Shown in pieces: positions 12,381 to 35,085 of a stretch of 64,000 nucleotides of DNA. A model generated the notes under the pieces. The model worked only from the letters and a program-made list of their open reading frames with translations, was not told where the DNA came from and did not search any database. Origin of the DNA: an uncultured Flavobacterium sp. (GTDB lineage: Bacteria > Bacteroidota > Bacteroidia > Flavobacteriales > Flavobacteriaceae); NCBI GenBank assembly GCA_937876455.1, contig CALFIG010000254.1, forward strand, positions 351 to 64,350, written 5' to 3'. The first letter of the stretch is position 1. Each line of letters opens with the position of its first letter. Both the position numbers and the translations under genes were made by a program.

Positions 12381-15185
12381 ATGTCTGAAGAAAGAGCAAT
12401 ACGAATTAATAAAGTCTTAAAAGAATTTAATATTTCATTGGATAGAGCAGTGGAAACACTTAAGGACAAGGGGCACACAATTGAGCACAGTCCTAATGCA
12501 AAAATATCTCAATTGGAGTATGACGTTTTATGTAGTACTTTTTCGGCTGATAAGGGGAACAAAGTAGCCTCTAAAGAAGTAGGTGAGGAAAAGAAAAAAG
12601 AGAAAGAAGCTCTTAAACGTGAAATCGAAAAAGACCTCGAAGAAAAACGTCGCGCTGAAGATGAAAGACAGAAACAAGAAATTATTAAAGCAAAAGCCAC
12701 TGTAACAGGTCCAAAAACACTTGGAAAAATTGAGCTAAATCCAATAAAAGGAGAAGTTGCTGAACAAAAAAATGTTTCGGAAAAACCTGTAGCTAAAATT
12801 GTTGAAAATGCGGTTATAAAAGAAGAAGTAAAATCCGAAAAATCTTCTGAAGCATCAAAATCAGAAACAGAAAAGAAAAAAGTTGCGGAACCAGTTTCAG
12901 TAGTTAAGAAAAAAGAAACCACAACTAATGCACAAGAAAGTGATGATGCATCAATTGATGAAACTATAAAAACCCAATATCAAAAACTTTCAGGTGCTAC
13001 TTTTACAGGACAAACCATTGATTTATCTCAATTTAATAAGCCTAAAAAGAAAAAAGAAGAACCTAAAAAAGATGGTAATCCTGCTGGTACAGGTAATACA
13101 AATCAAGCTGGAGCGAATAACAACAAAAATAAACGCAAAAGAATTACAAAGCCTGCAGGGCCAAATACTGGAGGTGCTGCTAATAATACGCAACAAGGAG
13201 GACAAAGAAAACCATTTGCAGCAGGAAATGATAGATTCAAAAAAGGAGGGCCAAAACCAGCTGTGGCTAAAGTTGAGCCTACAGAAGAAGAAGTTAAAAA
13301 TCAAATCAAAGAGACGCTAGAAAGATTACAAGGAAAAGGTAATAAATCTAAAGCGGCCAAATATAGAAGAGACAAAAGAGATACGCATCGTCAACGTTCA
13401 GAAGACGAACAATTACAACAAGAATTAGAAAGCAAAATCTTAAAAGTAACTGAATTTGTTACAGTTGGAGAAATTGCTACTATGATGGATGTGCCTATTA
13501 CAAAAGTAATTGGAACATGTATGTCTCTAGGCATAATGGTTACCATGAATCAGCGTTTAGATGCAGAAACATTAACTATTGTTGCAGATGAATTTGGGTA
13601 TGAAGTACAATTTATTACAACAGATATTGAAGAAAATATCGAAGTAATAGAAGATAATCCAGAAGATTTAACACATCGTGCGCCAATCGTAACCGTTATG
13701 GGACACGTAGATCACGGAAAGACATCTTTATTAGATTACATTAGAAAAGCAAATGTAATTGCTGGAGAATCAGGAGGAATTACACAACATATTGGCGCGT
13801 ATAGTGTAACTTTAGAAACAGGTCAAAAAATTACATTTTTAGATACACCAGGTCACGAAGCCTTTACAGCTATGCGTGCACGTGGTGCTCAAGTTACAGA
13901 TATCGCTATTATTGTAATTGCTGCAGATGATGATATCATGCCTCAAACAAAAGAAGCAATCAGTCATGCACAAGCAGCGGGAGTTCCTATGATATTTGCT
14001 ATAAATAAAGTAGATAAACAAACTGCAAATCCTGATAAAATCAAAGAAAAATTAGCTTCAATGAACCTTTTAGTGGAAGAATGGGGTGGAAAATACCAAT
14101 CTCATGACATCTCTGCTAAAATGGGAATGGGAGTTACAGAACTTTTAGAAAAAGTATTATTAGAGGCCGAAATATTAGAATTAAAAGCAAATCCAAATAA
14201 ACCGGCACAAGGAACAGTTGTAGAAGCTCAGCTAGATAAAGGACGTGGATATGTTTCTACTATCTTGGTACAAGCAGGGACACTTAAAATTGGCGATTAC
14301 CTTTTAGCTGGTAAAAACCATGGTAAAATCCGTGCCATGTTTGATGAAAGAGGACATACTGTAAAAGAAGCAGGTCCTTCAACACCAGTATCTATCCTTG
14401 GACTAGATGGTGCGCCAACAGCAGGAGATAAGTTTAATGTATATGAAGATGAAAGAGAAGCAAAACAAATTGCTGCAAAACGTACACAATTAATGCGTGA
14501 ACAATCGGTTCGTACACAAAAACATATTACCCTTTCAGAAATTGGGCGCCGTATCGCTTTAGGTCAGTTTAAAGAATTAAACATCATTCTTAAAGGAGAT
14601 GTGGACGGTTCAGTAGAAGCATTATCTGATTCATTCTCTAAATTATCAACGGAAGAAATTCAAATTAATATTATACATAAAGGAGTTGGAGCAATTACAG
14701 AATCTGACGTATTATTAGCGTCTGCTTCAGATGCTATTATTATTGGATTTAATGTTCGTCCTGCTGGAAATGCAAAAGCATTAGCTGAAAAAGAAGAAAT
14801 TGATATCCGAAATTATTCTATTATTTATGCAGCTATTGATGATTTAAAAGATGCAATGGAAGGCATGCTTTCTCCAGAATTAAAAGAAGAAATTACAGGT
14901 ACTGCCGAAATTAGAGAATTGTTTAAAGTTTCTAAAGTAGGAACAATTGCTGGATGTATGGTTACAGATGGTAAAGTAATTCGCAGTAACAGAATCCGAT
15001 TAATTAGAGAAGGGGTTGTTATTTTTACAGGAGAATTGGTTGCTTTAAAACGTTTCAAAGACGATGTAAAAGAAGTATCTAAAGGATACGATTGTGGTAT
15101 GCAAATTAAAGGATACAATGATATTAAGGAATACGATATTATTGAAAGTTTCCACGAAGTCGAAGTAAAGAAAAAATTAAAATAA
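12381..15185 (+). CDS. infB: Translation initiation factor IF-2
   Basis: [13 protein letters not shown] and NKVD G motifs, long charged N-terminus, C-terminal VSKGYDCG. Confidence 0.99.
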
Positions 15186-15190
15186 AACGT

Positions 15191-15222
15191 AATCCCGAGT
15201 TTAATTCTCGGGATTTTTTTTT
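15191..15222 (+). terminator. Intrinsic terminator of the rimP-nusA-infB operon
   Basis: AATCCCGAG-tttaatt-CTCGGGATT followed by a long T run. Confidence 0.9.
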
Positions 15223-15308
15223 GCTATAAACCTAACAGACTTTCAAAAATTTTAATAAAAACGAAATAAAATCCGCGATTAAATTAGTTTCTTATCCTTT
15301 TTTTCTCT

Positions 15309-15316
15309 TATTTTTG
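15309..15316 (+). promoter_or_regulatory. -7 promoter element (TATTTTTG) for the aromatic catabolic operon
   Basis: TAnnTTTG match 22 nt upstream of the first gene's ATG. Confidence 0.55.
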
Positions 15317-15338
15317 AGAGGATTATAATAAAATAAAC

Positions 15339-15941
15339 ATGCAATTCGACATTCAAAACACCGAATCTTCGGCTTTATATAAATTATTGACAGGAACTGT
15401 CATTCCAAGACCTATCGCTTGGGTAGCCACTATTGATGAAAATGGAATTGATAATTTGGCTCCGTTTTCCTTTTTTAATGTCGTTAGTGAGGACCCGCCT
15501 CACATTATGTTTTCAACTGTTCGAACGGGAAATAAAAATAAAGACACGTTAAATAATATTCTCGCCAATCAGCAATTTGTAGTCAATTTAGTTACGGAAG
15601 ATGTTGTAGAACAAATGAATACTACTGCACAATCCGTTGCGGCTGATGTCAATGAATTTGAATTAGCAAACGTAACACCAATAGAATCCATTTACATCAA
15701 ACCAAAACGAGTAAAAGAAAGTTTGGTGCAATTTGAATGCGAAATGGTACATCATTATTTTATCGAAAAGCATCAAAAGGGAGGCGCTTGTATTATCATT
15801 GGAAAAATTATTACCATGCATATTGACGATTCAATTTTGATGGAAAATCATAAAATCAATTTAGAAAAATACAAACCTGTTGCGCGTTTAGCAGGTTCAA
15901 ATTATAGTAAATTAGGAGAAATATTCTCCATTAAAAGATAA
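15339..15941 (+). CDS. Flavin reductase-like FMN-binding protein
   Basis: PRPIAWVAT...NLAPFSFFN...KDTLNNI...FVVNLV and C-terminal ARLAGSNY pattern. Confidence 0.9.
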   Translation: MQFDIQNTESSALYKLLTGTVIPRPIAWVATIDENGIDNLAPFSFFNVVSEDPPHIMFSTVRTGNKNKDTLNNILANQQFVVNLVTEDVVEQMNTTAQSVAADVNEFELANVTPIESIYIKPKRVKESLVQFECEMVHHYFIEKHQKGGACIIIGKIITMHIDDSILMENHKINLEKYKPVARLAGSNYSKLGEIFSIKR

Positions 15942-15981
15942 TTTAATTATCAATTATCCATTGTTAGTTATCCATTAAAAT

Positions 15982-18360
15982 ATGAAAATAACAGTTATAG
16001 GTGGTGGTCCAGGCGGACTTTACTTTTCGATATTAACCAAAAAAGCAATGCCACATTGCCAAATCGATATATACGAAAGAAACAAACCCGATGATAGTTT
16101 TGGATTTGGGGTAGTGTTTTCAGATGAAACCTTAGGCGAATTTTTAAAACGCGATATGCAATCGTATGAGTTAATCCGAAGTAAATTTGCGTATTGGGAC
16201 GATATTGTAGTAGCTCGAGATGGTGAAGAAGTAAGTATTGCTGGAAATGGTTTTTGTGGCTGTTCTCGTAAAACGCTCCTCCAATTGCTACAACAACGTT
16301 GTGTAGAAGAAGGTGTAAATTTGCATTTTGAACAAAATGTAGAGGATTTATCGCAATTCGAGGATTCAGATATAATTTTAGCTTCTGATGGAATTGCAAG
16401 TGCTATTCGTACAAAATACCAACAAGAATTCGGAACGAAAATTGAAGTAAAGAAAAACCGATTCGTTTGGTTAGGCTCAACAAAACCGCTTGACGCATTT
16501 ACCTATTTTTTTAGAAGTACACCGCATGGAACGATTGTTGCTCATACCTATCAATACGAAGAAGGCATGAGTACTTGGATTTTTGAATGTAGTGACGAAA
16601 CATGGCAAAAACATGGTTTTGAAGTAACAAATGAAGCAGATACGATGGCAAAAATCGCTGAAATTTTCAAAGAGGAATTAGACGGTCATCCGTTAATTTC
16701 CAATAAATCGCATTGGCGTCAATTTCCGCATGTTACAAATGAAAAGTGGCATCATAACAACATCGTTTTATTAGGCGATGCCAAAGCCACAGCTCATTAT
16801 TCTATTGGTTCAGGAACAAAATTAGCCATGGATTGTGCCATTGGTTTATCGGATGCCGTAATAGCCAATCCAACTAATGTGCAAGCTGCTTTTGAACACT
16901 ACGAAAAAACCCGAAGAAATACGGTAGAAATGATTCAATATGCTGCAGTCGTTTCTTTAGATTGGTTTGAAAATATGGATCGTCATATGCAACATTCGTT
17001 TCAGCAATTTGCATTTGGTTGCATGACGCGTTCTAAAAAAGTAACGTATGAAAATTTACGCTTAAGAGATAGTTCTTTTACTGATAAGGTTTTAGCAGAA
17101 TTTTTATCTTCGAGAACCTCAGATAATAATTTTAGCAAAAGTGTGTTGCCAGAGGCACTCGAAGCCAACAGTTCAAATCAAAAAGCGTTGCCAGAGGCTC
17201 TCGAAAGCAAAAGTGCTGCGTTTTCAAAATTTAAACTAAGAAATATAGAATTACAAAATCGTATCGTAATGTCGTCAATGGGGCAATATTTGGCCGAAAA
17301 CGGATTGGTGAACGATTGGCATTTTCAGCATTACACATCTAGAGCTGTGGGTGGTTTAGGATTAATTCTTGCCGAAATGACAGCTGTTTCTGACACAGGA
17401 AGAATTACAGAAGGTTGCGCAGGAATTTATACCGAAAATCAAGTAAACGCTTGGAAACGAATTACTGATTTTATTCACAAATATACCCAAACTAAAATCG
17501 GAATTCAAATAGGGCATTCAGGAAGAAAAGGTTGTTCAAAAATTCCTTGGGAAGACAAATTTCAGAGTAAAAAATGGGAGTTACTTTCGGCTTCTGCTAT
17601 TCCGTTTAATGAAAATCTAAATCCCGAAACTTCGGGGCCGAAAGAGATGACTTTAGCAGATATGCAATTGGTTAAAAGTCAATTCGTTCAAGCAGCTAAA
17701 AATGCAGACGAAGCTGGTTTTGATATGATTGAATTACAAGCGCATCATGGCTTTTTATTGGCATCTTTTTTGTCGCCATTGACTAATATTCGTACCGATG
17801 AATTTGGAGGAAGTGTTCAAAATCGATTAAAATATCCATTAGAGGTTTTTACCGCCATTCGGGAAGTATTTCCAAAAGAAAAACCAATTTCAGTTCGAAT
17901 TTCAGCAACCGATTGGGCAGAAAACGGAATTTCAGAACAAGATGTTTTGGTAATTTCTAAAGCGTTTAAACAGGCAGGTGCCGATATAATTAATGTTTCT
18001 ACAGGAAATACCGTGGCGCACCAAAAACCAATTACAGGAAGAATGTGGCAAACGCCTTTTTCAGATACGGTTCGAAATACCGTTAATATTCCAACAATTA
18101 CCGCAGGAACAATTCAAGATATCGACCAAATTAACACCATTCTTTTAAACGGAAGAGCCGATTTAGTAGCGCTAGGTCGACCTTTATTGTTAGATACTAA
18201 TTTTGTGAGAAATGCGCAAGCGTATGAACAATTTCAAGCAAATGATATTCCAAATCCATACAAAATGGGTGTTTCGCATTTGTATCCACTAAAAGCTTCA
18301 GAACGAAAACAAGCAGAAGGTATGAAAAAAGCATTGAAACCGAAAAGCAATAAATTATAA
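15982..18360 (+). CDS. Bifunctional salicylyl-CoA 5-hydroxylase / anthraniloyl-CoA monooxygenase-like protein (FAD monooxygenase fused to an OYE-like domain)
   Basis: GGGPGGLY, FGFGVVFSD and LLGDAKATAHYSIGSGTKLA in the N-domain. The C-domain is an old-yellow-enzyme TIM barrel (NIRTDEFGGS..NRLK, GRADLVALGR). Confidence 0.9.
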   Translation: MKITVIGGGPGGLYFSILTKKAMPHCQIDIYERNKPDDSFGFGVVFSDETLGEFLKRDMQSYELIRSKFAYWDDIVVARDGEEVSIAGNGFCGCSRKTLLQLLQQRCVEEGVNLHFEQNVEDLSQFEDSDIILASDGIASAIRTKYQQEFGTKIEVKKNRFVWLGSTKPLDAFTYFFRSTPHGTIVAHTYQYEEGMSTWIFECSDETWQKHGFEVTNEADTMAKIAEIFKEELDGHPLISNKSHWRQFPHVTNEKWHHNNIVLLGDAKATAHYSIGSGTKLAMDCAIGLSDAVIANPTNVQAAFEHYEKTRRNTVEMIQYAAVVSLDWFENMDRHMQHSFQQFAFGCMTRSKKVTYENLRLRDSSFTDKVLAEFLSSRTSDNNFSKSVLPEALEANSSNQKALPEALESKSAAFSKFKLRNIELQNRIVMSSMGQYLAENGLVNDWHFQHYTSRAVGGLGLILAEMTAVSDTGRITEGCAGIYTENQVNAWKRITDFIHKYTQTKIGIQIGHSGRKGCSKIPWEDKFQSKKWELLSASAIPFNENLNPETSGPKEMTLADMQLVKSQFVQAAKNADEAGFDMIELQAHHGFLLASFLSPLTNIRTDEFGGSVQNRLKYPLEVFTAIREVFPKEKPISVRISATDWAENGISEQDVLVISKAFKQAGADIINVSTGNTVAHQKPITGRMWQTPFSDTVRNTVNIPTITAGTIQDIDQINTILLNGRADLVALGRPLLLDTNFVRNAQAYEQFQANDIPNPYKMGVSHLYPLKASERKQAEGMKKALKPKSNKL
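17106..17210. repeat. Three copies of a REP-like hairpin (loop wGAGGcwCTCGAA) inside the hydroxylase coding sequence
   Basis: ATCT-TCGAGAACCTC-AGAT (17106-17124, reverse orientation), TGTTGCC-AGAGGCACTCGAA-GCCAACA (17144-17170), TTGC-CAGAGGCTCTCGAAA-GCAA (17188-17210). Confidence 0.75.
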
Positions 18361-18362
18361 AT

Positions 18363-18387
18363 AATTACGAATTAGAAATTACGAATT
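18363..18387 (+). repeat. Tandem AATTACGAATT repeats (left arm around the 18388 ORF)
   Basis: Exact copies at 18363-18373 and 18377-18387. The reverse complement AATTCGTAATT lies at 18757-18767. Confidence 0.85.
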
Positions 18388-18756
18388 ATGAAAAAAAATA
18401 AAATTTTTTACATCTCAATAATATTAGTTTTTGTTTGTTTTTGCATTTATTATTTTGAACCAATGCATAAGCCTGTTGAAACGTTAGATGAATTGATAGG
18501 TAAAAATTTGGATTTTGTAAATAATAAATATTTTAAATCTGAAGCAGATGAGACAATTAAAATCAACATAAATAATAACTTGAATGAATTTCAAGGAGGA
18601 ATATTAAATAAAAAATCAATATTAACAGATAGTATAGTCTATCAATATACCTGGAAATTTTTCACACACAAAAAAACAATTTGGGTTGGAAAAACAATTG
18701 AAAATAAATACCAAATAATTGATGCAATTAGATATAAAAACAATGTGAAATTTTAA
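18388..18756 (+). CDS. Hypothetical protein with N-terminal membrane anchor/signal
   Basis: 122-aa ORF beginning MKKNKIFYISIILVFVCFCIYYF. No family recognised. Confidence 0.7.
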   Translation: MKKNKIFYISIILVFVCFCIYYFEPMHKPVETLDELIGKNLDFVNNKYFKSEADETIKININNNLNEFQGGILNKKSILTDSIVYQYTWKFFTHKKTIWVGKTIENKYQIIDAIRYKNNVKF

Positions 18757-18771
18757 AATTCGTAATTAACT

Positions 18772-20352
18772 ATGAAAGATAATTTCGCTCATAAAAGTTT
18801 ACCAGCTCTGGAATTACAACCCAAATACACCTTTTTGGATTTACCACAATTCCAACAACCTGAACTATTGAATTGTGTCGATAAATTACTAGATAATCAC
18901 ATCAAAGAAGGTCGAGGAAATACCATTTGTATTCGAACCTTTGAAGAAACCTGGACATATCAGGATTTGTTTGAAAAAGCCAATCAAATGGCACATGTTT
19001 TAGTCGAAGATTTAGGGCTAGAATCAGGAAATCGCGTATTGCTGCGTTCGGCGAATAACCCAATGATGGTAGCGTGTTGGTTTGCCGTTTTAAAAGCTGG
19101 CGGAATTGTAGTAGCTACTATGCCTTTGCTTCGTTCTAAAGAATTGACTACAATTATTGATTGTGCTGAAATTTCACATGTATTGTGCGATAAGGAATTG
19201 GAAGAAGAAATACATTTAGTAAAATCGGATTTTTTTAAACAAACCTGTTTTTATGGAAATAGTCAATTGGAAAAATTAATGGCTACAAAATCAAAAGTAT
19301 TTGAAAATTATCCTTCAAAATCTGAGGATGTGGCTCTTATTGGATTTACTTCAGGCACTACAGGTTTGCCAAAAATGACAGCACATTATCACAAAGATAT
19401 TTTGAATATTTGTGAAGCATTTCCAAACTATTCGTTGCAACCTACTTCAAATGATATTTTTACAGGAAGTCCGCCCATTGGTTTTACTTTTGGTTTAGGA
19501 GGTTTGGTGTTGTTCCCCATGTATTTCGGAGCTTCCACTTTTTTAATCGAAAAACCAAGTCCAGATGTGTTGTTGAAAGCCATTCAAGAGTATAAAATCA
19601 CGATTTGTTTTACCGCTCCAACCGCTTGGCGAATGATTACCACTAAAATTCAAGAGTACGATATTTCGAGTTTACGAAAATGTGTATCTGCAGGTGAAAC
19701 ATTACCGTTAAAAGTTTGGCAAGATTGGTATGATGCCACAGGACTAAAAATTATTGATGGAATTGGCGCTACCGAAATGCTACATATTTTTATTTCGTCT
19801 AATGAAGAAAACATGAAACCCGGCGCTACAGGTAAAGCCATCACAGGTTATGAAGCTAAAATTATTGACCAACAAGGTAATGAAGTACCAAAAAATGAAG
19901 CTGGAAGACTAGCCGTTCGAGGAATTACAGGTTGTAAATACCTAAACCGAGAGGAAAAACAACGCGAATATGTCGAAAATGGATGGAATATTACAGGCGA
20001 TATTTTCCGTCAAGATGACGAAGGGTATTTTCATTTTGTTGCTCGTGGCGATGATATGATTATTTCTTCTGGTTATAATATTGCGGCAATTGAAGTAGAA
20101 TCCGTACTTTTAACTCATGAAAATATTTTAGAATGTGCCGTTGTGGGTTTACCCGATGAAGAAAGAGGCATGTTGGTTTGTGCATATATTGTTTTAAAAG
20201 AACAAGCAACGGCAGATGAAGCCTTAAAAATTCAGATTCAAAATTGGTTTAAAAACTCGGCAGCACCTTATAAATATCCAAGAGTAATTCATTTTGTGGA
20301 TTGTTTGCCAAAAACAGAAACGGGTAAAATACAACGATTTAAGCTGAAGTGA
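18772..20352 (+). CDS. Aromatic acid-CoA ligase (2-aminobenzoate/benzoate-CoA ligase family)
   Basis: AMP-binding motifs FTSGTTGLPK, SAGETLP, DGIGATEMLHIF, ITGDIF, PKTETGKIQRF. Confidence 0.9.
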   Translation: MKDNFAHKSLPALELQPKYTFLDLPQFQQPELLNCVDKLLDNHIKEGRGNTICIRTFEETWTYQDLFEKANQMAHVLVEDLGLESGNRVLLRSANNPMMVACWFAVLKAGGIVVATMPLLRSKELTTIIDCAEISHVLCDKELEEEIHLVKSDFFKQTCFYGNSQLEKLMATKSKVFENYPSKSEDVALIGFTSGTTGLPKMTAHYHKDILNICEAFPNYSLQPTSNDIFTGSPPIGFTFGLGGLVLFPMYFGASTFLIEKPSPDVLLKAIQEYKITICFTAPTAWRMITTKIQEYDISSLRKCVSAGETLPLKVWQDWYDATGLKIIDGIGATEMLHIFISSNEENMKPGATGKAITGYEAKIIDQQGNEVPKNEAGRLAVRGITGCKYLNREEKQREYVENGWNITGDIFRQDDEGYFHFVARGDDMIISSGYNIAAIEVESVLLTHENILECAVVGLPDEERGMLVCAYIVLKEQATADEALKIQIQNWFKNSAAPYKYPRVIHFVDCLPKTETGKIQRFKLK

Positions 20353-20385
20353 TTCGTAAATAGTAATTAGAATAAAACATAATCT

Positions 20386-20413
20386 TGTCATTCCGACGTA
20401 AGGAGGAATCACA
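20386..20413 (+). repeat. REP-like palindrome TGTCATTCC-gacgtaagga-GGAATCACA
   Basis: Imperfect 9-bp stem resembling the GTCATTCCGAC..AGGAGGAAT intergenic repeat I recall from Flavobacteriaceae. Confidence 0.65.
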
Positions 20414-20433
20414 TAATTTAGAAAACAAACAAA

Positions 20434-20853
20434 ATGAGTGAATTTATAAAACAAGAAAAAGTACGTTTCCAACATGTAGATTACGCCGGAATCGTTTTTT
20501 ATCCACGATTTTTAGAAATGCTAAATTGTTTAGTAGAAGATTGGTTTGAAGAAGCGTTAGACCGACCTTTTTCAAAAATGCACGAAACTAATGGAATCCC
20601 AACAGTTGATTTAAAAATTCAATTCAAAAATGCTGCACGCTTGGGCGAAATCTTAACCAAAAAGCTATGGGTAAAAGAACTAAAAAACTCCTCTATTATT
20701 TGTGGATTTGAGTTTGAAAACGAAAGTAATAATTTAGTTTTAGAAGGCGAAGTTACCTTAGTAAATGTAGCTTTCAACCCAGAAAGAAACGGCATCAAAG
20801 CCGAACCTTTTAATGAGGAAATGAAGAATAAAATAAAAAATTATAAATATTAA
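20434..20853 (+). CDS. Acyl-CoA thioesterase (4-hydroxybenzoyl-CoA thioesterase-like hotdog fold)
   Basis: VRFQHVDYAGIVFYPRF motif. Confidence 0.9.
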   Translation: MSEFIKQEKVRFQHVDYAGIVFYPRFLEMLNCLVEDWFEEALDRPFSKMHETNGIPTVDLKIQFKNAARLGEILTKKLWVKELKNSSIICGFEFENESNNLVLEGEVTLVNVAFNPERNGIKAEPFNEEMKNKIKNYKY

Positions 20854-20863
20854 ATTACTAAAT

Positions 20864-21226
20864 ATGAAAAGTATAGGGTTTACATTAATGTTGTTTTTTG
20901 CAATAAACTGTTTTGCTCAAAATTCAACATCACATTACAAAAAAGTATATCAATTTGATGTTCATCATCAAGATTGGGCAAAAGTTAAAACAGTGGCTAA
21001 TACATATGGGTTTATTGATAAATCTGGAAAAGAAGTTGTGCAAGCCATCTATTATAAAATTTATGATTTTGAAATTCAAAAAGACGGTAAAAAATACGCA
21101 ATGATTGAAAATGTTGCAGGAGCTTTTGGTTATATCGATGAAAACGGAAAAGAAATTGTTGAAGGGATTTATTGGAAGAAAGAAGAAGCGAATCAAAAAT
21201 TAAATTATTATTTCACTTCAAAGTAA
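20864..21226 (+). CDS. Exported WG-repeat-containing protein
   Basis: Signal peptide and two repeats, YGFIDKSGKEVV and FGYIDENGKEIV. Confidence 0.75.
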   Translation: MKSIGFTLMLFFAINCFAQNSTSHYKKVYQFDVHHQDWAKVKTVANTYGFIDKSGKEVVQAIYYKIYDFEIQKDGKKYAMIENVAGAFGYIDENGKEIVEGIYWKKEEANQKLNYYFTSK

Positions 21227-21257
21227 ATTCATAATTCATAATTTTCAATTCGTAATT
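21226..21257 (+). repeat. AATTCRTAATT heptamer-type repeats
   Basis: AATTCATAATT at 21226 and 21233, AATTCGTAATT at 21247-21257. Confidence 0.75.
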
Positions 21258-21265
21258 AAATAATT

Positions 21266-22249
21266 ATGACATTCAAAAAATTCAAAGCCGCTACTGTTCA
21301 AACCTCACCTGTATTTCTAAATGTAGAAAAAACAGTAGATAAAGCCATTTCTTTCATTAAAGAAGCAGCAAACAATCAGGTAAAATTAATTGCTTTTCCT
21401 GAAGTATTTATTTCTGGATATCCCTATTGGAATTGGATCATGACACCCGTTCAAGGCAGTAAATGGTATGAAACATTATATAAAAATTCGGTTGATGTAA
21501 CAGGACCTGAAATCAAGAAATTATGTTTGGCTGCTAAAGAAAACGATATTCATATTGTTATAGGAATCAATGAAAGAGGTTCTAGCTATGGCGAAATTTA
21601 CAATACCAATTTAATAATTGATAACAAAGGCGTTATCATCGGAAAACACAGAAAGTTAGTGCCTACTTGGGCCGAAAAACTGACGTGGACTTCTGGTGAT
21701 GGTTCTTCGTTAAAAGTATATGATACCGAAATAGGGCCTATTGGAACCTTAGCGTGTGGCGAAAACACCAATACATTAGCACGGTTTACGTTACTTTCTC
21801 AGGGCGAATTGATTCATATTGCGAATTACATTTCACTTCCGGTTGCACCACCAGATTATGATATGGCTGAAGCGATTAAAATTCGTGCGGCTGCACATTC
21901 TTTTGAAGGAAAATTATTTACGATTGTGTCGTGTTCCACGGTTTCTCAAGAAATCAAAGATGCTTTACGTGCAGATGTGCCAAATGTAGATGAATTATTA
22001 GACAGAAAAAGTTCAGCTTTCTCAAGTTTTATTGGTCCAAATGGCGCTGTCATCGGGCAACCTTTAATTGATGAAGAAGGAATAGTATATGCCGAAATTG
22101 ATTTAGAAAAATGCATCCAACCGAAACAAATGCACGATATTTTAGGGCATTATAACCGATTTGATATTTTCGATTTGAGAGTAAACACCGCTCCCACACG
22201 TAAAATCACGTTTATAGACAATCACGAAGAATTTAATAAAGATAAATAA
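21266..22249 (+). CDS. Nitrilase-superfamily carbon-nitrogen hydrolase
   Basis: Catalytic triad context FPEVF (Glu), HRKLVPT (Lys), LACGEN (Cys). Confidence 0.9.
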   Translation: MTFKKFKAATVQTSPVFLNVEKTVDKAISFIKEAANNQVKLIAFPEVFISGYPYWNWIMTPVQGSKWYETLYKNSVDVTGPEIKKLCLAAKENDIHIVIGINERGSSYGEIYNTNLIIDNKGVIIGKHRKLVPTWAEKLTWTSGDGSSLKVYDTEIGPIGTLACGENTNTLARFTLLSQGELIHIANYISLPVAPPDYDMAEAIKIRAAAHSFEGKLFTIVSCSTVSQEIKDALRADVPNVDELLDRKSSAFSSFIGPNGAVIGQPLIDEEGIVYAEIDLEKCIQPKQMHDILGHYNRFDIFDLRVNTAPTRKITFIDNHEEFNKDK

Positions 22250-22280
22250 TTGTTGACTGAGGCATTCGAAGTCAACAATT
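22248..22280 (+). repeat. REP-like hairpin of the same family as the copies inside the hydroxylase
   Basis: Perfect 10-bp stem AATTGTTGAC/GTCAACAATT around the loop TGAGGCATTCGAA. Confidence 0.8.
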
Positions 22281-22293
22281 TAAAATAAAAAGT

Positions 22294-23406
22294 ATGGAAA
22301 CAAATAATTTTTCAGACGACCAATATGGAAGAGCACGAGTTCAAGATTCCGAAGAATTAAAAGCCTATTATAAAGAATTGGAAACGCTTGGTGCGGGTGC
22401 TTTATGGACTGTCGCTAATGATATTGAACCTTGGGAACCTCGTTCTTCATCGATTCCTATGTTGTGGAAATACGATGATTTACGCGAATTAGTACTAAAA
22501 TCATCCGAATTAGTAACGCCCGAACAAGCAGGTCGAAGAGTTGTTTATTTAGTAAACGACAAACGTAAAGATGTTTCGGCAGCAGTGGGTTGGTTGTACA
22601 CCGGAATTCAAGTTACACGTCCGGGAGAGTTTACTTCGGCACACAGACATCGTGCTTCAGCCTTGCGTTTTATTATGGAAGGCGAAAAAGGCTATACCGT
22701 TGTAGATGGAAATAAAATTATACTTGAAGTGAACGATTTTGTCATTACTCCAAATTCTACTTGGCATGAACATGGTGTAGAAGAAGGTGGAAAAACCTGT
22801 ATTTGGCAAGATGGTTTAGATATTCCATTGGTAAATGCTTTGGAAGCGAATGATTATGCGGTTTATGATGGCAAACAAGAATTGGTAAAACCATTAAATT
22901 TTTCACCTATTACCTATGGCTGCGCAGGATTAATCCCAGCAGATAATACGTGGGATAAACCGTATTCTCCGCTATTCAAATATTCTTGGAAAAATGTTTA
23001 TCCAGCGTTATTAGAAGCTCAAAAAGTAAATGAAGTCAATCCGTATGACGGGATTTTCATGCAATATTCGAATCCGTTAACAGGCGGACATGTGATGCAA
23101 ACGATGGGAGCTGCGATGCAATTGTTACCGGCTGGTTTCAAAGGGAAAGCTCACAAACATACAGGTTCGTTTGTGTACCAATGTGCGAAAGGAAAAGGAT
23201 TTTCTATCATCAACGGACAACGTTTCGATTGGAAGGAAAGAGATATTTTCTGTGTTCCGAGTTGGGCTTGGCACGAACACCACAATTTATCCGAAACCGA
23301 AGATGCTTGTCTTTTTCAATTCAACGATTTACCAGTAATTGAGAGTTTAGGGCTTTTTCAATCAAGAGAATTAACAGAAAACAACGGACATCAGCCAATT
23401 CAATAA
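22294..23406 (+). CDS. Gentisate 1,2-dioxygenase-like bicupin ring-cleavage dioxygenase
   Basis: AHRHRASALRF and TPNSTWHEH Fe(II)-binding cupin motifs, WQDGLDIP, and a second cupin (AHKHTGS, VPSWAWHEH). Confidence 0.88.
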   Translation: METNNFSDDQYGRARVQDSEELKAYYKELETLGAGALWTVANDIEPWEPRSSSIPMLWKYDDLRELVLKSSELVTPEQAGRRVVYLVNDKRKDVSAAVGWLYTGIQVTRPGEFTSAHRHRASALRFIMEGEKGYTVVDGNKIILEVNDFVITPNSTWHEHGVEEGGKTCIWQDGLDIPLVNALEANDYAVYDGKQELVKPLNFSPITYGCAGLIPADNTWDKPYSPLFKYSWKNVYPALLEAQKVNEVNPYDGIFMQYSNPLTGGHVMQTMGAAMQLLPAGFKGKAHKHTGSFVYQCAKGKGFSIINGQRFDWKERDIFCVPSWAWHEHHNLSETEDACLFQFNDLPVIESLGLFQSRELTENNGHQPIQ

Positions 23407-23469
23407 CAATATAAAATTCAATAAAAAACGTTGCTACTTTGTAACTTAGCAACTTTGAAACATAATAAC

Positions 23470-24378
23470 ATGAAACTACTTACTTACAAAACAAAAGATA
23501 CCGAGCCACGTTTAGGCTTCATTCATAATAATCAAGTCATTGATATGGAAGATTTTGGCGATATTTCTAATTTCCCACTACCAAACGACATGTTGGAATT
23601 AATTGATATGGGCTTTGAAATTATTCCAGAAATTTCAGAACTAATTGCGGAAACGCCAGAAAATTTCTTTGAAGAAATCGCTTATGAAATGAACGAGGTT
23701 ACGATTTTAGCCCCAATCGAAAAACCAAGAAAAAACATCATTGGTATTGGGTTAAATTACACCGAACATGTTGCCGAAAGTGCTCGCACATTGGATACAA
23801 CTGGAAAGTTGCCAACAAAACCAATTATCTTTTCAAAACCACCCACAACGGTTACTGCTACCAATACCGAAATCATTAAAAACACGAAGTTGACTTCACA
23901 ATTGGATTGGGAATGTGAATTGGCGGTTGTTATTTCTAAAAAAGCAAAATATGTTGCCAAAGAAAACGCGATGGATTATGTGTTTGGTTACACCGTAATT
24001 AATGATATTTCTGCTCGCGATTGTCGTCGTGAAGGACAATGGATTGTGTCTAAAGGACAAGATACTTTTGCACCAATGGGACCTTATTTGGTTACAAAAG
24101 ACGAAATCGAAAACCCACACAATTTGAATCTATCGTTAAAAGTAAACGGAGTTGAAAAACAAAATTCCAATACAAAATTCATGTTGTTTAACATCAATGA
24201 TTTGATAGAAGATTTAAGCATCGTTTTTACTTTAGAAGCAGGAGACATTATTGCAACAGGCACGCCGGCAGGTGTTGGCGCAGGAAGGAATCCACAAGAA
24301 TGGATGCATAATGGTGATGTGGTAGAAGCTACAGTGGAAGGAATTGGAACTATAACGAATACAGTTAAAGAGATATAA
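23470..24378 (+). CDS. Fumarylacetoacetate hydrolase family protein (acylpyruvate hydrolase-like)
   Basis: IGLNYTEH, IFSKPPT, LDWECELAVVI, GYTVINDISARD, GDIIATGTPAGVG. Start placed at the ATG at 23470. Confidence 0.92.
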   Translation: MKLLTYKTKDTEPRLGFIHNNQVIDMEDFGDISNFPLPNDMLELIDMGFEIIPEISELIAETPENFFEEIAYEMNEVTILAPIEKPRKNIIGIGLNYTEHVAESARTLDTTGKLPTKPIIFSKPPTTVTATNTEIIKNTKLTSQLDWECELAVVISKKAKYVAKENAMDYVFGYTVINDISARDCRREGQWIVSKGQDTFAPMGPYLVTKDEIENPHNLNLSLKVNGVEKQNSNTKFMLFNINDLIEDLSIVFTLEAGDIIATGTPAGVGAGRNPQEWMHNGDVVEATVEGIGTITNTVKEI

Positions 24379-24381
24379 ATA

Positions 24382-24438
24382 AGTATTCAGTCGCAGTTTT
24401 CAGTGTTCATACTGCTGACTGGGACTGGACTGTAAACT
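24382..24438. repeat. Composite inverted repeat built of CAGT / ACTG units
   Basis: AGTATTCAGTCGCAGTTTTCAGT-gttcat-ACTGCTGACTGGGACTGGACTGTAAACT. Confidence 0.7.
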
Positions 24439-24445
24439 AATTAAT

Positions 24446-25192
24446 ATGAAATACAAAATAGGCCAAATAGTTCCATCAAGTAACGTTACGATGGAAACCG
24501 AAATACCAGCCATTTTTCGTTCACGTGAAACCATTTTACCAGAACGCTTTACCTTTCATAGCAGTAGAATGCGCATGAAAAAAGTAACCAAAGAAGAATT
24601 GGAAGCAATGGATGCAATGAGCTTAAAATGCGCACAAGAACTATCAGACGCACACGTTGATGTGATGGGTTATGCCTGTTTGGTAGCGATTATGAGTATG
24701 GGACGCGGGTATCATTGTGTGTCGGAAGTAAATTTACACCAAGAAACAGTGGCTAATGATTTTCCAACGCCAATTGTTACTTCTGCAGGCGCATTAATTA
24801 ACGGATTAAAGGTTTTGGGAGCGAAACAAATTTCGATTATTACGCCGTATATGCGACCATTAACCGATATGGTAGTGGATTATATTGAAAATCAAGGCAT
24901 CAAAGTAAAACAAAGTATCGCTTTAGAAATTCCAGATAATTTGGAAGTAGCGGCACAAAATCCAATGAATTTATTGGAAATCTACAAGCAATTGGATTTA
25001 ACAGATGTTGATGTTTTAGTCGCTTCAGCTTGTGTGCAAATGCCATCGTTGGAAGCTATTGATTTAATTCAAGCAGAATGTGGTATTCCGGTAACTTCAG
25101 CCGCAGTTTGTACCACCTATGAAATGATGAAAAAATTAGGCATTGAACCCAAATCGGCTATTGGAGGCGAATTATTAAGCGGGAAATATTAA
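24446..25192 (+). CDS. Maleate cis-trans isomerase (Asp/Glu racemase superfamily)
   Basis: IGQIVPSSNVTMETE N-terminus and the catalytic cysteine pair YACLV and SACVQMP. Confidence 0.9.
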   Translation: MKYKIGQIVPSSNVTMETEIPAIFRSRETILPERFTFHSSRMRMKKVTKEELEAMDAMSLKCAQELSDAHVDVMGYACLVAIMSMGRGYHCVSEVNLHQETVANDFPTPIVTSAGALINGLKVLGAKQISIITPYMRPLTDMVVDYIENQGIKVKQSIALEIPDNLEVAAQNPMNLLEIYKQLDLTDVDVLVASACVQMPSLEAIDLIQAECGIPVTSAAVCTTYEMMKKLGIEPKSAIGGELLSGKY

Positions 25193-25210
25193 TTCAATCA
25201 ACATTATAAA

Positions 25211-25244
25211 AAAATGCGTTCTGATTATTTTCAGAACGCATTTT
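25211..25244. terminator. Bidirectional intrinsic terminator
   Basis: AAAATGCGTTCTGA-ttattt-TCAGAACGCATTTT, a perfect 14-bp stem between convergent genes. Confidence 0.9.
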
Positions 25245-25263
25245 GCATTTTATATAGAATAGT

Positions 25264-27459
25264 TTAAAAACTATATTTTGCTCCGCCATATATGTTTCTT
25301 CCTGGTGCATTAATCCCTGAAGCGAATGTGCGGTATTGTGTGTCTAAAATATTTTCTATACCTGTATAAAATTTAAAGCCATACATGTCTTTTGACGACG
25401 CTTTTATGTTGTAGGTTTCCCAAGCCGGCATACCTGTTGCAGGCGCATATTGTGGGTTGTCTTCTCCGCTTGTGCTGTAATCTGCAATGTCTTTTTTACC
25501 ATTAAATAGGAGATAGGCTTCTACCATTCCCCATTCGCGAGAATAATTTAAACCAATTCGGCCAAAATAAGGCGGAATATGATCCAAAGGTCTATTTGTT
25601 GTTTCTATTACTCTTCCTAACGTATACGAATAACTACCGTCAAATGTTAACGATGAAGTTAAAGTTGATTTAAATGCTAAGTTAAATCCTGTAACATATG
25701 CTCTCCCTTTATTTTGATTTGCATATACTTCGCTTAATGTTCCATTATACATTAGTGTACTTGCGCCACCATAAGTAAATTTATCAGTTATGATGGCATC
25801 ATACATGTTTGTGTAAAAATAAGTTCCTTCAAAAAAATGTTGATTCGATTCTGTTTTTAGTACAAATCCTAAATCAGTTGTAACTGTTTTTTCAGGGGCT
25901 AGGTTATTATTTGGTACAATTATCTTTCCACCTCCAGATTCAAATATTTTTGCTAAATCATCAATGTTTGGCACTCTAAATCCAGAACTTAAATTTGTTT
26001 TTAAAATGATATTTTTAGATGCATTATGTACAAGTCCTACATTTCCGCTATAGGTAATATTGTTTTGTTTTATTTCCCAAAAAGGTAAGGGGAAAAAAGT
26101 ATTATCTGAAATTGTACTTTTTAAACTTGTATAACCTAGACGCGCTCCGGCACTCCAGTTGGTTTTTTGGTATCTTTTTGATGTATAAGAAAAATAGATA
26201 TCTGAACGCATCATATGGTTTTTTCCATTGGGATATCTGGTGTCTAAAGAGGTTTCAGTTCCTGTGTTAATATTGTTTTTAAAGGCCGTTGATTTTAAAT
26301 TGTCATAATAAGTTTCTAGACCATAATATAAATTTCCGTTTTTTAATTTAGTTTCAAAATTTGTGGCTAAAGAAAATACAGCTACTTTTTCAATTCTGTT
26401 TTGCAAGTTATAGTTTCCAAAATTTCTGTTTACTCTGCTTTCTCTCACATTTTGATAACTCAAATCAATTTTAACATCCGTATTTGTAAATACGTTTTCT
26501 TTTTCAATACTATAAATTCCAAGTACTCTTTTTTGAGGCCCATAATACCATTCGGCACTTTTTAGAACAGTAGAAGAGGAGGGATCAGTTAGCCTGTCAT
26601 ATCTTGGAATGTTTGAACTAGTTGAATATTGAAAATTTAAGGTATGCAAAAATCCAGTAGTTGTTTTATAATTCAATTTTTGCATGAAATTATATTGTTT
26701 ATAGCCAGAATTTACTTGAATATATTTGTTGTCATTTGTAATGATTGCATCGACTCCATTAATTGTTGAGACATATAATGGTCTTTCGCCAAAAAAATCG
26801 CCATGATGGTTTTTCTTTTTACCCATTTTTATGTCGCCAAAATCATTGAATGAAAAAGCAGTAAATGAAGTCCAGTTTTTTCCGCCATATCCTAAGTCAA
26901 AATAAGATGATTTTTCTGTATTTGCAGAAGAAAATCTCGAACTAATTGAACCTGATAGATTAGTATTGAAAAGTGTGTTTTTTGTCAACATATTTACAGA
27001 ACCACCTAAGGCATCGCTACCATATAAAGTTGAGGTTGGGCCGTATTGAATAAGTATATTTTCAAGAAAATTTTCGTCAACAGTAATGACATTTTGTAAA
27101 TGACCTGCTCTAAAAATAAGATTGTTCATTCTAACACCATCTACAAGCAATAAAACTCTACTCGATTCAAATCCTCTAATTACAGGACTTCCACCACCTT
27201 GTTGTGATTTTTGAATAAATAGCGCCCCTGAATTTCCTAATGCGTCCGCTGTAGTTTGAAAATTTTGAAATTCAATTTTAGCTTTAGAAATAACTTCGAT
27301 TTGCGATGGATGTTGCTGTTTGTTAATGCTAATTTTTGTAGAGTTGATTTTTATCTCTTCAATGTTTTGAATTTTAATACTGTCTTTAGATTTTTGAGAA
27401 AAAGAGAATTGTAAACAAAAAAAGGTAAGCAAAATGGGTAAAAAATAATTTTTAGTCAT
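25264..27459 (-). CDS. TonB-dependent outer-membrane receptor (substrate unknown; resembles heme/siderophore-type receptors)
   Basis: Signal peptide, plug motif QKSQQGGGSPVIRGF..SRVLLLVDGVRMN, NLAPEK, C-terminal APGRNIYGGAKYSF. Confidence 0.9.
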   Translation of the reverse strand: MTKNYFLPILLTFFCLQFSFSQKSKDSIKIQNIEEIKINSTKISINKQQHPSQIEVISKAKIEFQNFQTTADALGNSGALFIQKSQQGGGSPVIRGFESSRVLLLVDGVRMNNLIFRAGHLQNVITVDENFLENILIQYGPTSTLYGSDALGGSVNMLTKNTLFNTNLSGSISSRFSSANTEKSSYFDLGYGGKNWTSFTAFSFNDFGDIKMGKKKNHHGDFFGERPLYVSTINGVDAIITNDNKYIQVNSGYKQYNFMQKLNYKTTTGFLHTLNFQYSTSSNIPRYDRLTDPSSSTVLKSAEWYYGPQKRVLGIYSIEKENVFTNTDVKIDLSYQNVRESRVNRNFGNYNLQNRIEKVAVFSLATNFETKLKNGNLYYGLETYYDNLKSTAFKNNINTGTETSLDTRYPNGKNHMMRSDIYFSYTSKRYQKTNWSAGARLGYTSLKSTISDNTFFPLPFWEIKQNNITYSGNVGLVHNASKNIILKTNLSSGFRVPNIDDLAKIFESGGGKIIVPNNNLAPEKTVTTDLGFVLKTESNQHFFEGTYFYTNMYDAIITDKFTYGGASTLMYNGTLSEVYANQNKGRAYVTGFNLAFKSTLTSSLTFDGSYSYTLGRVIETTNRPLDHIPPYFGRIGLNYSREWGMVEAYLLFNGKKDIADYSTSGEDNPQYAPATGMPAWETYNIKASSKDMYGFKFYTGIENILDTQYRTFASGINAPGRNIYGGAKYSF

Positions 27460-29439: not shown

Positions 29440-29470
29440 TATTAATTTAAGAAGCTAATATCTATATACA

Positions 29471-32400: not shown

Positions 32401-32542
32401 GATTTTTGGGGACGTTAATGATGCTACTTCTGATGTGGCAAAATTAGCCGAATCTGATAGATCATATCATTTGTTAGAGCATATTGGAACAAAACCAAAT
32501 GTGTTCTACCACGTGAAAGTAAGAAACGATAAAGAAATTTAA
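29471..32542 (+). CDS. actB: Alternative complex III subunit ActB (molybdopterin oxidoreductase-like plus Fe-S domain, Tat lipoprotein)
   Basis: YWKS...SRRDFLK...LAAC leader and Fe-S motifs CTGCGACVIAC, CQHCNHAPCETVCP, CVGTRYCANNCP. Confidence 0.95.
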   Translation: MASNKKYWKSVEELNENSSIVETLKNNEFVEQIPVDEFLGDKENLTNSSTSRRDFLKYVGFSTAAASLAACEGPVIKSIPYVVQPEEIIPGVADYYATTIADGFDFANILIKTREGRPIKVENNKLQGAVSGANARVHASVLSLYDNLRLKGPKVEGKESSWNEVHAKVKASLSEAKANGGAVVVLTNTMSSPSTDKLIGDLTAKYTNVKHVVYDAVSETNALDAFQTVYGFRALANYDFSKADTIVSVGADFLGDWQGGGFDAGYAKGRIPKNGKMSKHIQIEANMSLAGASADKRIPLTIADQKKALVKLYNAVTGSNVTVGKLAKYDADVEKAAQQLKASASKGVVVTGLDDLDAQLLVLAINNALQSQAFNPTDAKLVRKGDAKAVNQLVADMNAGKVHTLIMSGVNPVYTLPNAKEFVAGLGKVKVSVAFSTKEDETAKISTIAAAATHYLESWGDVMITRSNYSLMQPTIRPLFDTKQFQEALLTWTDNPTTYYDFLKGFAPALLGGKSWNQAVHDGFTVLGAGSVTAQGANYAASATKLANAKATGLDLVLYTKVGMGDGQQANNPWLQEFPDPITRVSWDNYVTVSKADAEKLGLKNWNVANGGLNGSYTSIKVGNATLEKVPVVIQPGQAVGTIGLSLGYGKKEALKEEMQVGVNAYTVYANFNANQSATVTLADGEHEFACVQLQKTLMGRGDIIKDTTLSVFNKANDSGEVELYNPKPVVSLDHKETPASKVDLWTSFDRSTGHHFNLSIDLNACTGCGACVIACHAENNVPVVGKSEVRRSRDMHWLRIDRYYSSEETFAGDIDKKESADGLMSSISTFTSMEDPSENPQVAFQPVMCQHCNHAPCETVCPVAATSHSRQGQNHMAYNRCVGTRYCANNCPYKVRRFNWFLYNKNDEFNYHMNDDLGRMVLNPDVNVRSRGVMEKCSMCIQMTQATILKAKKEGRAVETNEFATACSAACTSGAMIFGDVNDATSDVAKLAESDRSYHLLEHIGTKPNVFYHVKVRNDKEI

Positions 32543-32567
32543 TAACAGAAATACAATATAAAGGATT

Positions 32568-33971: not shown

Positions 33972-33982
33972 TATTTAAGATT

Positions 33983-34504: not shown

Positions 34505-34511
34505 AGGAGTG

Positions 34512-35060: not shown

Positions 35061-35085
35061 TAATACATTTTTGAAAATAATAGAT

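Follow-up and report, generated by a model that had tools for sequence, protein, structure and literature searches.

Which compound is degraded by the operon at positions 15339-25192 of the window (the whole analysed stretch of 64,000 nucleotides from an uncultured Flavobacterium sp.), and why does this operon encode a carbon-nitrogen (C-N) hydrolase next to enzymes of aromatic ring cleavage? We give somewhat better than an even chance to the answer that it specifies a catabolic route for anthranilate, in which activation as a coenzyme A (CoA) thioester and gentisate-type ring cleavage would be combined with nitrilase-dependent removal of nitrogen. In bacteria, the breakdown of tryptophan (by way of kynurenine), indole, isatin, auxin and quinolones is funnelled through anthranilate (2-aminobenzoate). 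An earlier note on this DNA had drawn a route from anthranilate through 5-hydroxyanthranilate, maleamate and maleate to fumarate, starting from eight co-oriented enzyme genes. All eight are present on the + strand within this span, and two small open reading frames (ORFs) were found in addition. The window is a low-GC (~33%) segment of a Flavobacterium chromosome. Its nitrilase is 86-95% identical to Flavobacterium proteins, and 99% of its sampled words are present in one wastewater metagenome run.

The operon proteins were assigned to families with Pfam and NCBIfam profiles and compared with solved structures in the PDB. Gene content, family membership, catalytic residues, operon boundaries, conservation and co-occurrence are reported here as observed. 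The C-N hydrolase (positions 21266-22249; 327 residues; PF00795 (CN_hydrolase), 150 bits) is recognizable as a true branch-1 nitrilase. Its catalytic triad is present as Glu46 (FPE), Lys130 (HRKL) and Cys164 (CGEN), and the 13 best matches in the PDB are all nitrilases, cyanide dihydratases or cyanide hydratases, with scores of 150-214 bits (214 for 6ZBY). Amidases and carbamoylases score 50 bits or less. The best NCBIfam match, to TIGR04048 (Nit6803/Nit1C-cluster), amounts to 234.5 bits, below the cut-off of 502.6, so the protein is not assigned to that family. It is the only C-N hydrolase among the ten operon proteins, and no isochorismatase-family match was found among them with either Pfam or NCBIfam.

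The next gene (positions 22294-23406) encodes a bicupin of 370 residues with Cupin_2 matches in two stretches. The protein aligns end to end with both the Ruegeria pomeroyi enzyme GDOsp (PDB 3BU7, 515 bits) and the E. coli gentisate dioxygenase (GDO; 2D40, 232 bits). It is 59-60% identical to GDOsp over the full length and only ~37-40% identical to canonical GDOs. Residues His117, His119, His158, Arg125 and His160 are present and are invariant across 7-9 members of the subfamily, which places the protein in the bicupin 3-His Fe(II) family. Its match to TIGR02272 (gentisate_1_2) is 305 bits, below the cut-off of 442.1. Judged by these scores, the window bicupin and GDOsp form a distinct subfamily, apart from the TIGR02272 equivalogs.

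The FAH-family hydrolase (positions 23431-24378, TTG start; 315 residues; PF01557, 232.6 bits) has a full FAA_hydrolase C-terminal domain, and its gene follows the cupin gene in all related loci with room for it. The protein scores 219 bits to PDB 8SKY and only 95 bits to the solved maleylpyruvate hydrolase 6JVV, a distant match, and the scores leave its substrate unsettled. The last gene (positions 24446-25192; 248 residues, Asp/Glu racemase type) evidently encodes a bona fide maleate cis-trans isomerase. It matches the maleate isomerases of P. putida S16 (4FQ7, 313 bits) and N. farcinica (2XEC, 185 bits), has the catalytic residues Cys78 and Cys196 in YAC and SAC motifs, and is 87-99% identical across Flavobacterium.

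In the upper part of the operon, the putative aryl-CoA ligase (positions 18772-20352; 526 residues, AMP-binding; PF00501 and PF13193) has its best NCBIfam match in the benzoate-CoA ligase family TIGR02262 (340 bits). Its identity reaches 50% with the ligases encoded by the abm-type clusters of R. pomeroyi and Ralstonia, as against 25-27% with other nearby ligases, and we propose that it is an anthranilate-CoA ligase. These abm-type clusters (L001, L002) encode a hydroxylase together with SDR, enoyl-CoA hydratase, acyl-CoA dehydrogenase and RidA proteins, and that of R. pomeroyi adjoins a tryptophan 2,3-dioxygenase gene.

The predicted aryl-CoA 5-hydroxylase (positions 15982-18360; 792 residues) is a fusion of a flavin adenine dinucleotide (FAD) monooxygenase and an old yellow enzyme (OYE)-type flavin mononucleotide (FMN) domain. 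This architecture is seen in the FAD_binding_3 match at residues 129-316 and the PF00724 match at residues 414-746 (225 bits). Residues 1-777 align to positions 1-762 of the 768 positions of NF006101, "salicylyl-CoA 5-hydroxylase/oxidoreductase", that is, over its full length, with 969 bits against a cut-off of 1078. However, this name is also given to enzymes of clearly abm-type (anthranilate) clusters, and the model does not distinguish salicylyl-CoA from 2-aminobenzoyl-CoA as the substrate. The window hydroxylase shows 42-45% identity to abm-type hydroxylases and equally to those linked to the cupin. In Burkholderiales, the hydroxylases linked to the cupin share 66-68% identity with the abm-type hydroxylase of Ralstonia, indicating that they are recent paralogues of a 2-aminobenzoyl-CoA enzyme.

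The 4HBT-fold acyl-CoA thioesterase (positions 20434-20853; 139 residues; PF13279 and PF03061) has homologues in the cupin-linked clusters of S. alexandrii (48% identity), Novosphingobium (44%), and Caballeronia and Ralstonia (29%). The first gene (positions 15339-15941) encodes a flavin reductase-like protein of 200 residues (PF01613, 87.7 bits). Genes of family PF01613 are likewise found with the cupin-FAH pair in Ralstonia, Aminobacter, Tistrella, Novosphingobium and S. alexandrii, and in all eight metagenome clusters of the type called B below.

The eight enzyme genes are found in the same order and on the same strand in 52 of the 57 Flavobacterium loci with enough flank. In the remaining five, the first genes are displaced beyond the fetched flank by insertions. 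These loci belong to the best 80 of at least 598 cupin-matching stretches in a one-genome-per-species collection, all from Flavobacterium or close kin, and all matches listed have at least 86% identity. The flavin reductase gene is the first gene of the 52 complete operons, and the lower four genes (nitrilase, cupin, FAH and isomerase) occur together in 64 of 64 Flavobacterium loci. The eight-gene arrangement is far beyond chance.

In the proposed route, the substrates and products of which we infer throughout, the ligase would make anthraniloyl-CoA, and the FAD/OYE fusion would hydroxylate this compound para to the amino group. From the resulting 5-hydroxyanthraniloyl-CoA the 4HBT thioesterase would release free 5-hydroxyanthranilate. 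The GDOsp-type bicupin, acting as a 5-hydroxyanthranilate 1,2-dioxygenase, would then open the ring at the bond that joins C1 to C2, the carbon with the amino group. This would yield a nitrogen-bearing analogue of maleylpyruvate, with a carboxamide or a nitrile as its terminal carbon. C-C hydrolysis of this 2,4-diketo product by the FAH-family enzyme would yield pyruvate and either maleamate or cis-3-cyanoacrylate. The branch-1 nitrilase would hydrolyse the C4 compound to maleate and NH3, and the isomerase would convert maleate to fumarate; the order of the FAH and nitrilase steps could be reversed. The flavin reductase might re-reduce a quinone-imine arising from the autoxidized p-aminophenol substrate, or the Fe centre of the dioxygenase. 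Enzymes of the nitrilase superfamily operate by a Cys-Glu-Lys thioimidate/acyl-enzyme mechanism, the product of which must be a carboxylic acid; for this reason maleate would fit as the product of the nitrilase.

The Pfam search found no enoyl-CoA hydratase or acyl-CoA dehydrogenase of the beta-oxidation type, no SDR and no RidA among the operon proteins, which agrees with the statement in the earlier note that the operon has no beta-oxidation genes. Because a thioesterase and a ring-cleaving enzyme stand in place of such genes, the ring would have to stay aromatic after hydroxylation.

Other phyla were sampled by a metagenome scan and by tblastn against a collection of plasmids and secondary replicons, the annotated regions of which were then compared. 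Nitrilases at least 60% identical to that of the window were found in 11 records of the plasmid collection (60-67% identity), and all 11 adjoin a cupin that is 55-64% identical to the window's. A megablast search with the whole operon against the plasmids gave no match. The nitrilase-cupin-FAH-isomerase module is present on replicons of R. pomeroyi, Shinella, Sagittula, Leisingera, Caballeronia, Ralstonia solanacearum and Embleya. Embleya is the one actinobacterial record with the module, which is thus found in three phyla. The gene arrangement described in the earlier note is real, and the module is not confined to this genome but widely distributed. It is carried by Flavobacterium from fresh water and wastewater, by marine roseobacters, and by Burkholderiales and Rhizobiales that are associated with plants, Ralstonia solanacearum among them.

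In Caballeronia and Ralstonia the gene order cupin-FAH-nitrilase-isomerase is the order of the proposed reactions, and in these two genera and in Cupriavidus an FAD/OYE hydroxylase gene is situated directly upstream of the cupin gene. The canonical Streptomyces gentisate cluster that was sampled, with a cupin 40% identical, has no C-N hydrolase. The cupin of the R. pomeroyi module is GDOsp itself. On the megaplasmid of this organism (L003:6010-8918), genes for an aldehyde dehydrogenase and a class-III aminotransferase lie directly before the nitrilase gene, with no hydroxylase nearby.

The companions of the module include IorA/IorB-like (IadAB-like) 2-oxoacid oxidoreductases, a 4HBT thioesterase, MarR regulators and an isatin hydrolase. 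The last of these is the companion gene annotated as "cyclase family", which scores 461 bits to the Ralstonia isatin hydrolase PDB 5NMP. No homologue of the window or abm-type ligase, at a threshold of at least 40% identity, was found in the IorAB-type clusters. Isatinate is a 2-oxoacid. The iad auxin loci, which convert indole-3-acetic acid by way of isatin and isatinate to anthranilate, contain the IorAB homologues IadA and IadB (PMC9613470). We infer that the IorAB-like enzymes convert isatinate to anthraniloyl-CoA, a role held in Flavobacterium by the ligase.

The place of the nitrilase in the pathway was examined further in the metagenome scan. Seeded with the Caballeronia cupin, it gave at least 549 matching stretches, from which 80 loci at 74-87% identity were taken; 46 of these are long enough to be informative. 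An orthologous nitrilase (type A) is present in 25 of the 46, a second kind of nitrilase (type B) in eight, only a flavin reductase in three, and none of these in ten. All 13 hydroxylase-containing loci have a nitrilase (Fisher p=0.009, uncorrected for relatedness), as have all ten loci that contain IorA. In the clusters without a nitrilase, the hydroxylase, IorAB and the thioesterase are never present. The isomerase is found in 18 of the 25 type-A loci and in none of the 21 others (p=2e-7).

These patterns suggest that the nitrilase is tied to a route from an aryl-CoA that is hydroxylated by an abm-like enzyme. Taken with the absence of a window- or abm-type ligase from the IorAB-type clusters, they place it downstream, between ring cleavage and isomerase. 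The earlier note had asked whether the C-N hydrolase accompanies the hydroxylase in other genomes, which it does in 13 of 13 loci. The same note had preferred anthranilate to salicylate and had made the C-N hydrolase a late step feeding the isomerase. This preference is favored by the isatin hydrolase/IorAB context, by the 50% identity of the ligase to abm-type enzymes, by the kinship of the cupin-linked hydroxylases of Burkholderiales with the abm-type enzyme of Ralstonia and by the two co-occurrence counts. The alternative that the note had kept, in which a nitrile or amide is hydrolysed first, is argued against by the IorAB-type clusters, which are without a window- or abm-type ligase, so that a freed aromatic acid would probably be of little use to them.

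The identity of the compound hydrolysed by the nitrilase is less certain. Maleamate, the specific intermediate named by the earlier note, is not established, because the hydrolase is a true branch-1 nitrilase and is replaced elsewhere by a NIT4-like lineage; a nitrile is at least as consistent with these facts. The type-B hydrolases, found in Aminobacter, Tistrella, Novosphingobium and eight metagenome loci, share 70-72% identity among themselves but only 31-37% with type A. Among solved structures they match plant NIT4, a beta-cyanoalanine nitrilase, best (354 bits). The cupins of the type-A and type-B clusters are intermixed, with identities of 56-79%, while the nitrilases are unrelated, indicating that one cupin-FAH pair recruited two separate true-nitrilase lineages. 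Replacement of the nitrilase by an amidase-signature or NicF-type enzyme was not seen in the sample, in which nitrilase-less clusters were annotated at two loci only. As two lineages of true nitrilases, and no amidase family, were recruited, the simplest reading is that the hydrolysed compound is a nitrile.

Carried through the whole pathway, this reading would have the bicupin release the nitrile 6-cyano-2,4-dioxohex-5-enoate, from which the FAH-family enzyme would form pyruvate and cis-3-cyanoacrylate and the dedicated nitrilase would form maleate. We regard this full sequence of events as possible but, on the whole, doubtful. Attack of O2 at C1 of a 2-amino substrate might give an alpha-peroxy-imine or a cyclic imidate, hydrolysis of which would lead to the amide, and fragmentation to a nitrile and a 2-oxoacid. 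Chemistry offers a precedent, in that o-phenylenediamine can be oxidized to mucononitrile under copper catalysis. Related nitrilases of the Nit6803 family hydrolyse fumaronitrile, a C4 unsaturated nitrile, to 3-cyanoacrylate (PMC7815647).

Several observations weigh against an anthranilate route in which nitrogen is removed only after ring cleavage. There is no kynurenine-pathway gene within the window. All known gentisate-binding residues are conserved in the bicupin, and its sequence cannot separate a 2-OH from a 2-NH2 substrate. The modules of R. pomeroyi, Shinella and Sagittula have no hydroxylase nearby, and the roseobacter modules suggest a feed compound that is different or already hydroxylated. 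In type-B clusters the nitrilase is present and the isomerase absent. In 13 of the 46 informative loci, the cupins of which belong to the same subfamily (74-87% identical to the Caballeronia cupin), there is no nitrilase. The cupin-FAH pair is thus not always nitrilase-dependent, and the idea that a C-N hydrolase is near-universal beside this cupin subfamily was rejected. Two annotated loci that have neither nitrilase nor reductase (L108:10001-18403 and L125:10001-18429) contain, besides the cupin-FAH pair, genes for a Liv-type ABC transporter, for a GntR/FCD regulator and for an Abhydrolase_3/BD-FAE hydrolase, which may either stand in for the nitrilase or have an ester precursor as its substrate.

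Part of the adverse evidence would be accommodated if the nitrogen of anthranilate were lost before cleavage, an explanation that we consider unlikely. In that case 5-hydroxyanthranilate, its CoA ester or a quinone-imine would be deaminated to gentisate, gentisyl-CoA or carboxybenzoquinone, with the C-N hydrolase catalysing or assisting the reaction and the flavin reductase reducing the quinone. The cupin would be a true GDO and the FAH-family enzyme a maleylpyruvate hydrolase that forms maleate and pyruvate, with fumarate again made by the isomerase. In agreement with this, GDOsp is entered among the purified, characterized gentisate dioxygenases in PMC4585797 and is reported to be active on gentisate. 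In Nocardia opaca and Alcaligenes In3, too, gentisate was described as an intermediate that follows anthranilate or 5-hydroxyanthranilate (Cain 1968; Claus & Kutzner 1983, as cited in PMC4539516 and PMC6221969). The nitrilase-less clusters of the same cupin subfamily point the same way, among them those of S. alexandrii and one metagenome locus (L008, L166), where RidA and a flavin reductase are found in place of the nitrilase. So does the abutment of the nitrilase and flavin reductase genes in type-B clusters, and the rule that a hydroxylase is accompanied by a nitrilase fits equally well. However, Cys attack on a nitrile or amide carbon is unsuited to the hydrolysis of an arylamine, enamine or quinone-imine, and quinone-imines hydrolyse spontaneously. 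Moreover, two lineages of true nitrilases would each need the same atypical reaction, and with an FAH-family enzyme that always gave maleate, the isomerase would not be expected to occur with the type-A nitrilase only. A simple reconciliation may be that the cupin subfamily accepts both gentisate and 5-hydroxyanthranilate, and that the nitrilase is needed only when the feed is the amino compound.

The weakest of the readings, and in our view a very improbable one, is a CoA-dependent salicylate-to-gentisate route of the sdg/ceh kind, followed by direct maleylpyruvate hydrolysis and by isomerization of maleate. The nitrilase would then be either an unrelated passenger or the enzyme of an earlier step, in which an aromatic nitrile or amide is hydrolysed (2-hydroxybenzonitrile, 2-aminobenzonitrile or indole-3-acetonitrile). 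The ligase, 5-hydroxylase, thioesterase, GDO-like enzyme, FAH-family hydrolase and maleate isomerase would by themselves make a complete salicylate route, in line with the sdg genes of Streptomyces WA46 and the HbzF-type maleylpyruvate hydrolases; the NCBIfam name of the hydroxylase family is that of a salicylyl-CoA enzyme, and branch-1 nitrilases normally act on nitriles. Against this, the nitrilase gene is embedded in the lower module in all three phyla, next to the genes for cupin, FAH and isomerase or between them; the NCBIfam name also covers abm-type clusters; isatin hydrolase and abm-like genes as neighbours indicate amino-substituted substrates; the proteobacterial versions have IorAB for the ligase, so that a freed aromatic acid could enter the CoA pathway only by way of some other ligase; and formation of gentisyl-CoA from salicylyl-CoA needs no nitrilase, yet 13 of 13 hydroxylase-containing metagenome loci have one.

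The anthranilate route shares parts with several known systems. The sdgABCD (Streptomyces sp. WA46) and ceh (Rhizobium sp. X9) pathways, followed by the gentisate pathway with direct maleylpyruvate hydrolysis of the HbzF type, have in common with it a ligase, an FAD/OYE 5-hydroxylase, a thioesterase, a GDO-family bicupin and an FAH hydrolase. The logic is also the same: activation, hydroxylation para to the C2 substituent, release, and cleavage between C1 and C2. Unlike these pathways, the window module has an integral branch-1 nitrilase, a maleate isomerase and a cupin of the GDOsp subfamily, and the neighbours of the module elsewhere point to a 2-amino substrate.

The abm pathway of Azoarcus evansii (AbmG ligase and AbmA monooxygenase/reductase, then beta-oxidation-like steps) also starts from anthranilate, and in its type of hydroxylase the two domains are arranged as in the window enzyme, with 43-45% identity. 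However, the window operon is without the SDR, enoyl-CoA hydratase, acyl-CoA dehydrogenase and RidA and has a thioesterase followed by aromatic ring cleavage instead, so it is not an abm pathway. The maleamate pathway of nicotinate and nicotine degradation (NicF/NicE of P. putida; Ami/Iso of S16) would have the same end, in which a C4 cis-acid derivative is converted to maleate and NH3 and then to fumarate. NicF and Ami are isochorismatase-like, whereas the window C-N hydrolase belongs to branch 1 of the nitrilase superfamily and is thus not a member of their family. Furthermore, a benzene ring rather than 2,5-dihydroxypyridine would be opened, by a bicupin, and there is no N-formylmaleamate deformylase.

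The iad loci of Variovorax and Bradyrhizobium, with isatin hydrolase, resemble the proteobacterial modules in carrying IorAB (IadAB-like), MarR and isatin hydrolase genes; the window is without these upstream genes and has the ligase instead. GDOsp of Silicibacter/Ruegeria pomeroyi (3BU7) shares the Fe ligands, the substrate-binding Arg and His and the same nitrilase-cupin-FAH-isomerase arrangement, but was published as a gentisate enzyme, in contrast to the function proposed here. A kinetic paper in which 3BU7 is overlaid was set aside as evidence on GDOsp, because the enzyme used was that of C. glutamicum.

What is new here is most likely a pathway of the gentisate type in an adaptation to rings with an amino substituent, which ends in a nitrilase-dependent way and is widespread among bacteria. 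In the searchable literature no paper was found that joins 5-hydroxyanthranilate with maleamate or that mentions, in connection with catabolism, the intermediates or CoA esters proposed here, although paywalled work may exist. Conversion of anthranilate to 5-hydroxyanthranilate followed by gentisate-type cleavage has been reported physiologically since 1968, and a 2018 review gives the genes of an anthranilate-to-gentisate route as not known (PMC6221969). The module is a concrete candidate for these missing genes of an anthranilate-to-gentisate-type route. If the proposed route is correct, the physiological substrate of the crystallized GDOsp would be re-assigned and the blanket annotation "salicylyl-CoA 5-hydroxylase" would be corrected. 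The missing downstream half of iad-type auxin/isatin degradation would be supplied, consuming anthranilate or anthraniloyl-CoA. Two lineages of otherwise orphan nitrilases would gain a natural function, possibly together with a new ring-cleavage chemistry. To our knowledge, no nitrile-forming aromatic ring-cleaving dioxygenase has been known previously; should the hydrolysed compound prove to be a nitrile, the bicupin would be the first, and the branch-1 nitrilases of both lineages would have a role in central aromatic catabolism.

The operon consists of ten co-oriented ORFs on the + strand, separated by gaps of 10-81 nucleotides and situated between the rimP-nusA-infB unit and a convergent TonB-dependent receptor gene (positions 25264-27459, - strand). 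Its 5' boundary is set by the intrinsic terminator of the upstream unit (positions 15191-15215, + strand), which has a 9-bp GC-rich stem followed by a T run and lies just beyond the end of infB at position 15185. Ahead of the first gene, non-coding sequence of appreciable length is confined to the AT-rich leader and putative promoter region (positions 15216-15338, + strand); a sigma-70 scan of this region is uninformative for Bacteroidota. The 3' boundary is a bidirectional terminator with a 14-bp stem (positions 25211-25244), which was scored on both strands and is common to the operon and the convergent receptor gene. No comparable internal terminator was found between the two. Run X9, although labelled a metatranscriptome, was rejected as evidence of transcription, because its contigs of 18-51 kb span the operon and its neighbours (positions 14800-25500) and DNA was evidently present.

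The two small ORFs do not appear to be parts of the pathway. The 122-residue ORF between the hydroxylase and ligase genes (positions 18388-18756), which has no Pfam or NCBIfam match, is present in none of the 80 Flavobacterium loci and was rejected. In run X9, a closely related strain carries another segment, of 346 nucleotides, exactly at this site, and the hydroxylase-ligase gap is therefore a hypervariable slot. The WG-repeat ORF (positions 20864-21226; 120 residues; PF14903) was likewise rejected, being found in only 7 of 80 loci. Varied, unrelated genes are inserted among the core genes from species to species, and the chromosomal position of the operon also varies. Together with the lack of conservation of the small ORFs, this indicates that the operon is a self-contained, movable unit of eight enzymes.

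Two of the inserted genes recur in Flavobacterium but are absent from the window. Between the ligase and thioesterase genes, 21 of 80 loci (as in L041:4934-6517) encode a membrane-anchored protein of 527 residues that contains an FMN domain of the glutamate-synthase kind (PF01645, 292 bits), and a 151-residue ORF of the AHSA1/SRPBCC fold lies between the flavin reductase and hydroxylase genes in 11 loci (as in L015:4001-4456). No conserved regulator or kynurenine-pathway gene stands beside the Flavobacterium operons, where the only frequent neighbour is an ORF for a 139-residue protein with an InsA zinc ribbon and a helix-turn-helix (HTH) domain. It is divergent and located just upstream of the operon in 17 loci (as in L015:2742-3161, - strand), and may be a domesticated regulator of the transposase type. 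In the window its place is taken by infB, and there is no obvious regulator.

The rest of the window contains two further groups of genes. At positions 28102-39558 there are genes for alternative complex III (a multihaem cytochrome c, an Fe-S/molybdopterin-like subunit, NrfD, ActD and a cytochrome c), after which come those for subunits II and I of cytochrome oxidase, an ordinary set for Flavobacteriia. At positions 56171-63328 the window encodes SprA, a protein of 2385 residues of the type IX secretion and gliding system, with the glycine-cleavage H protein encoded downstream at positions 63401-63811.

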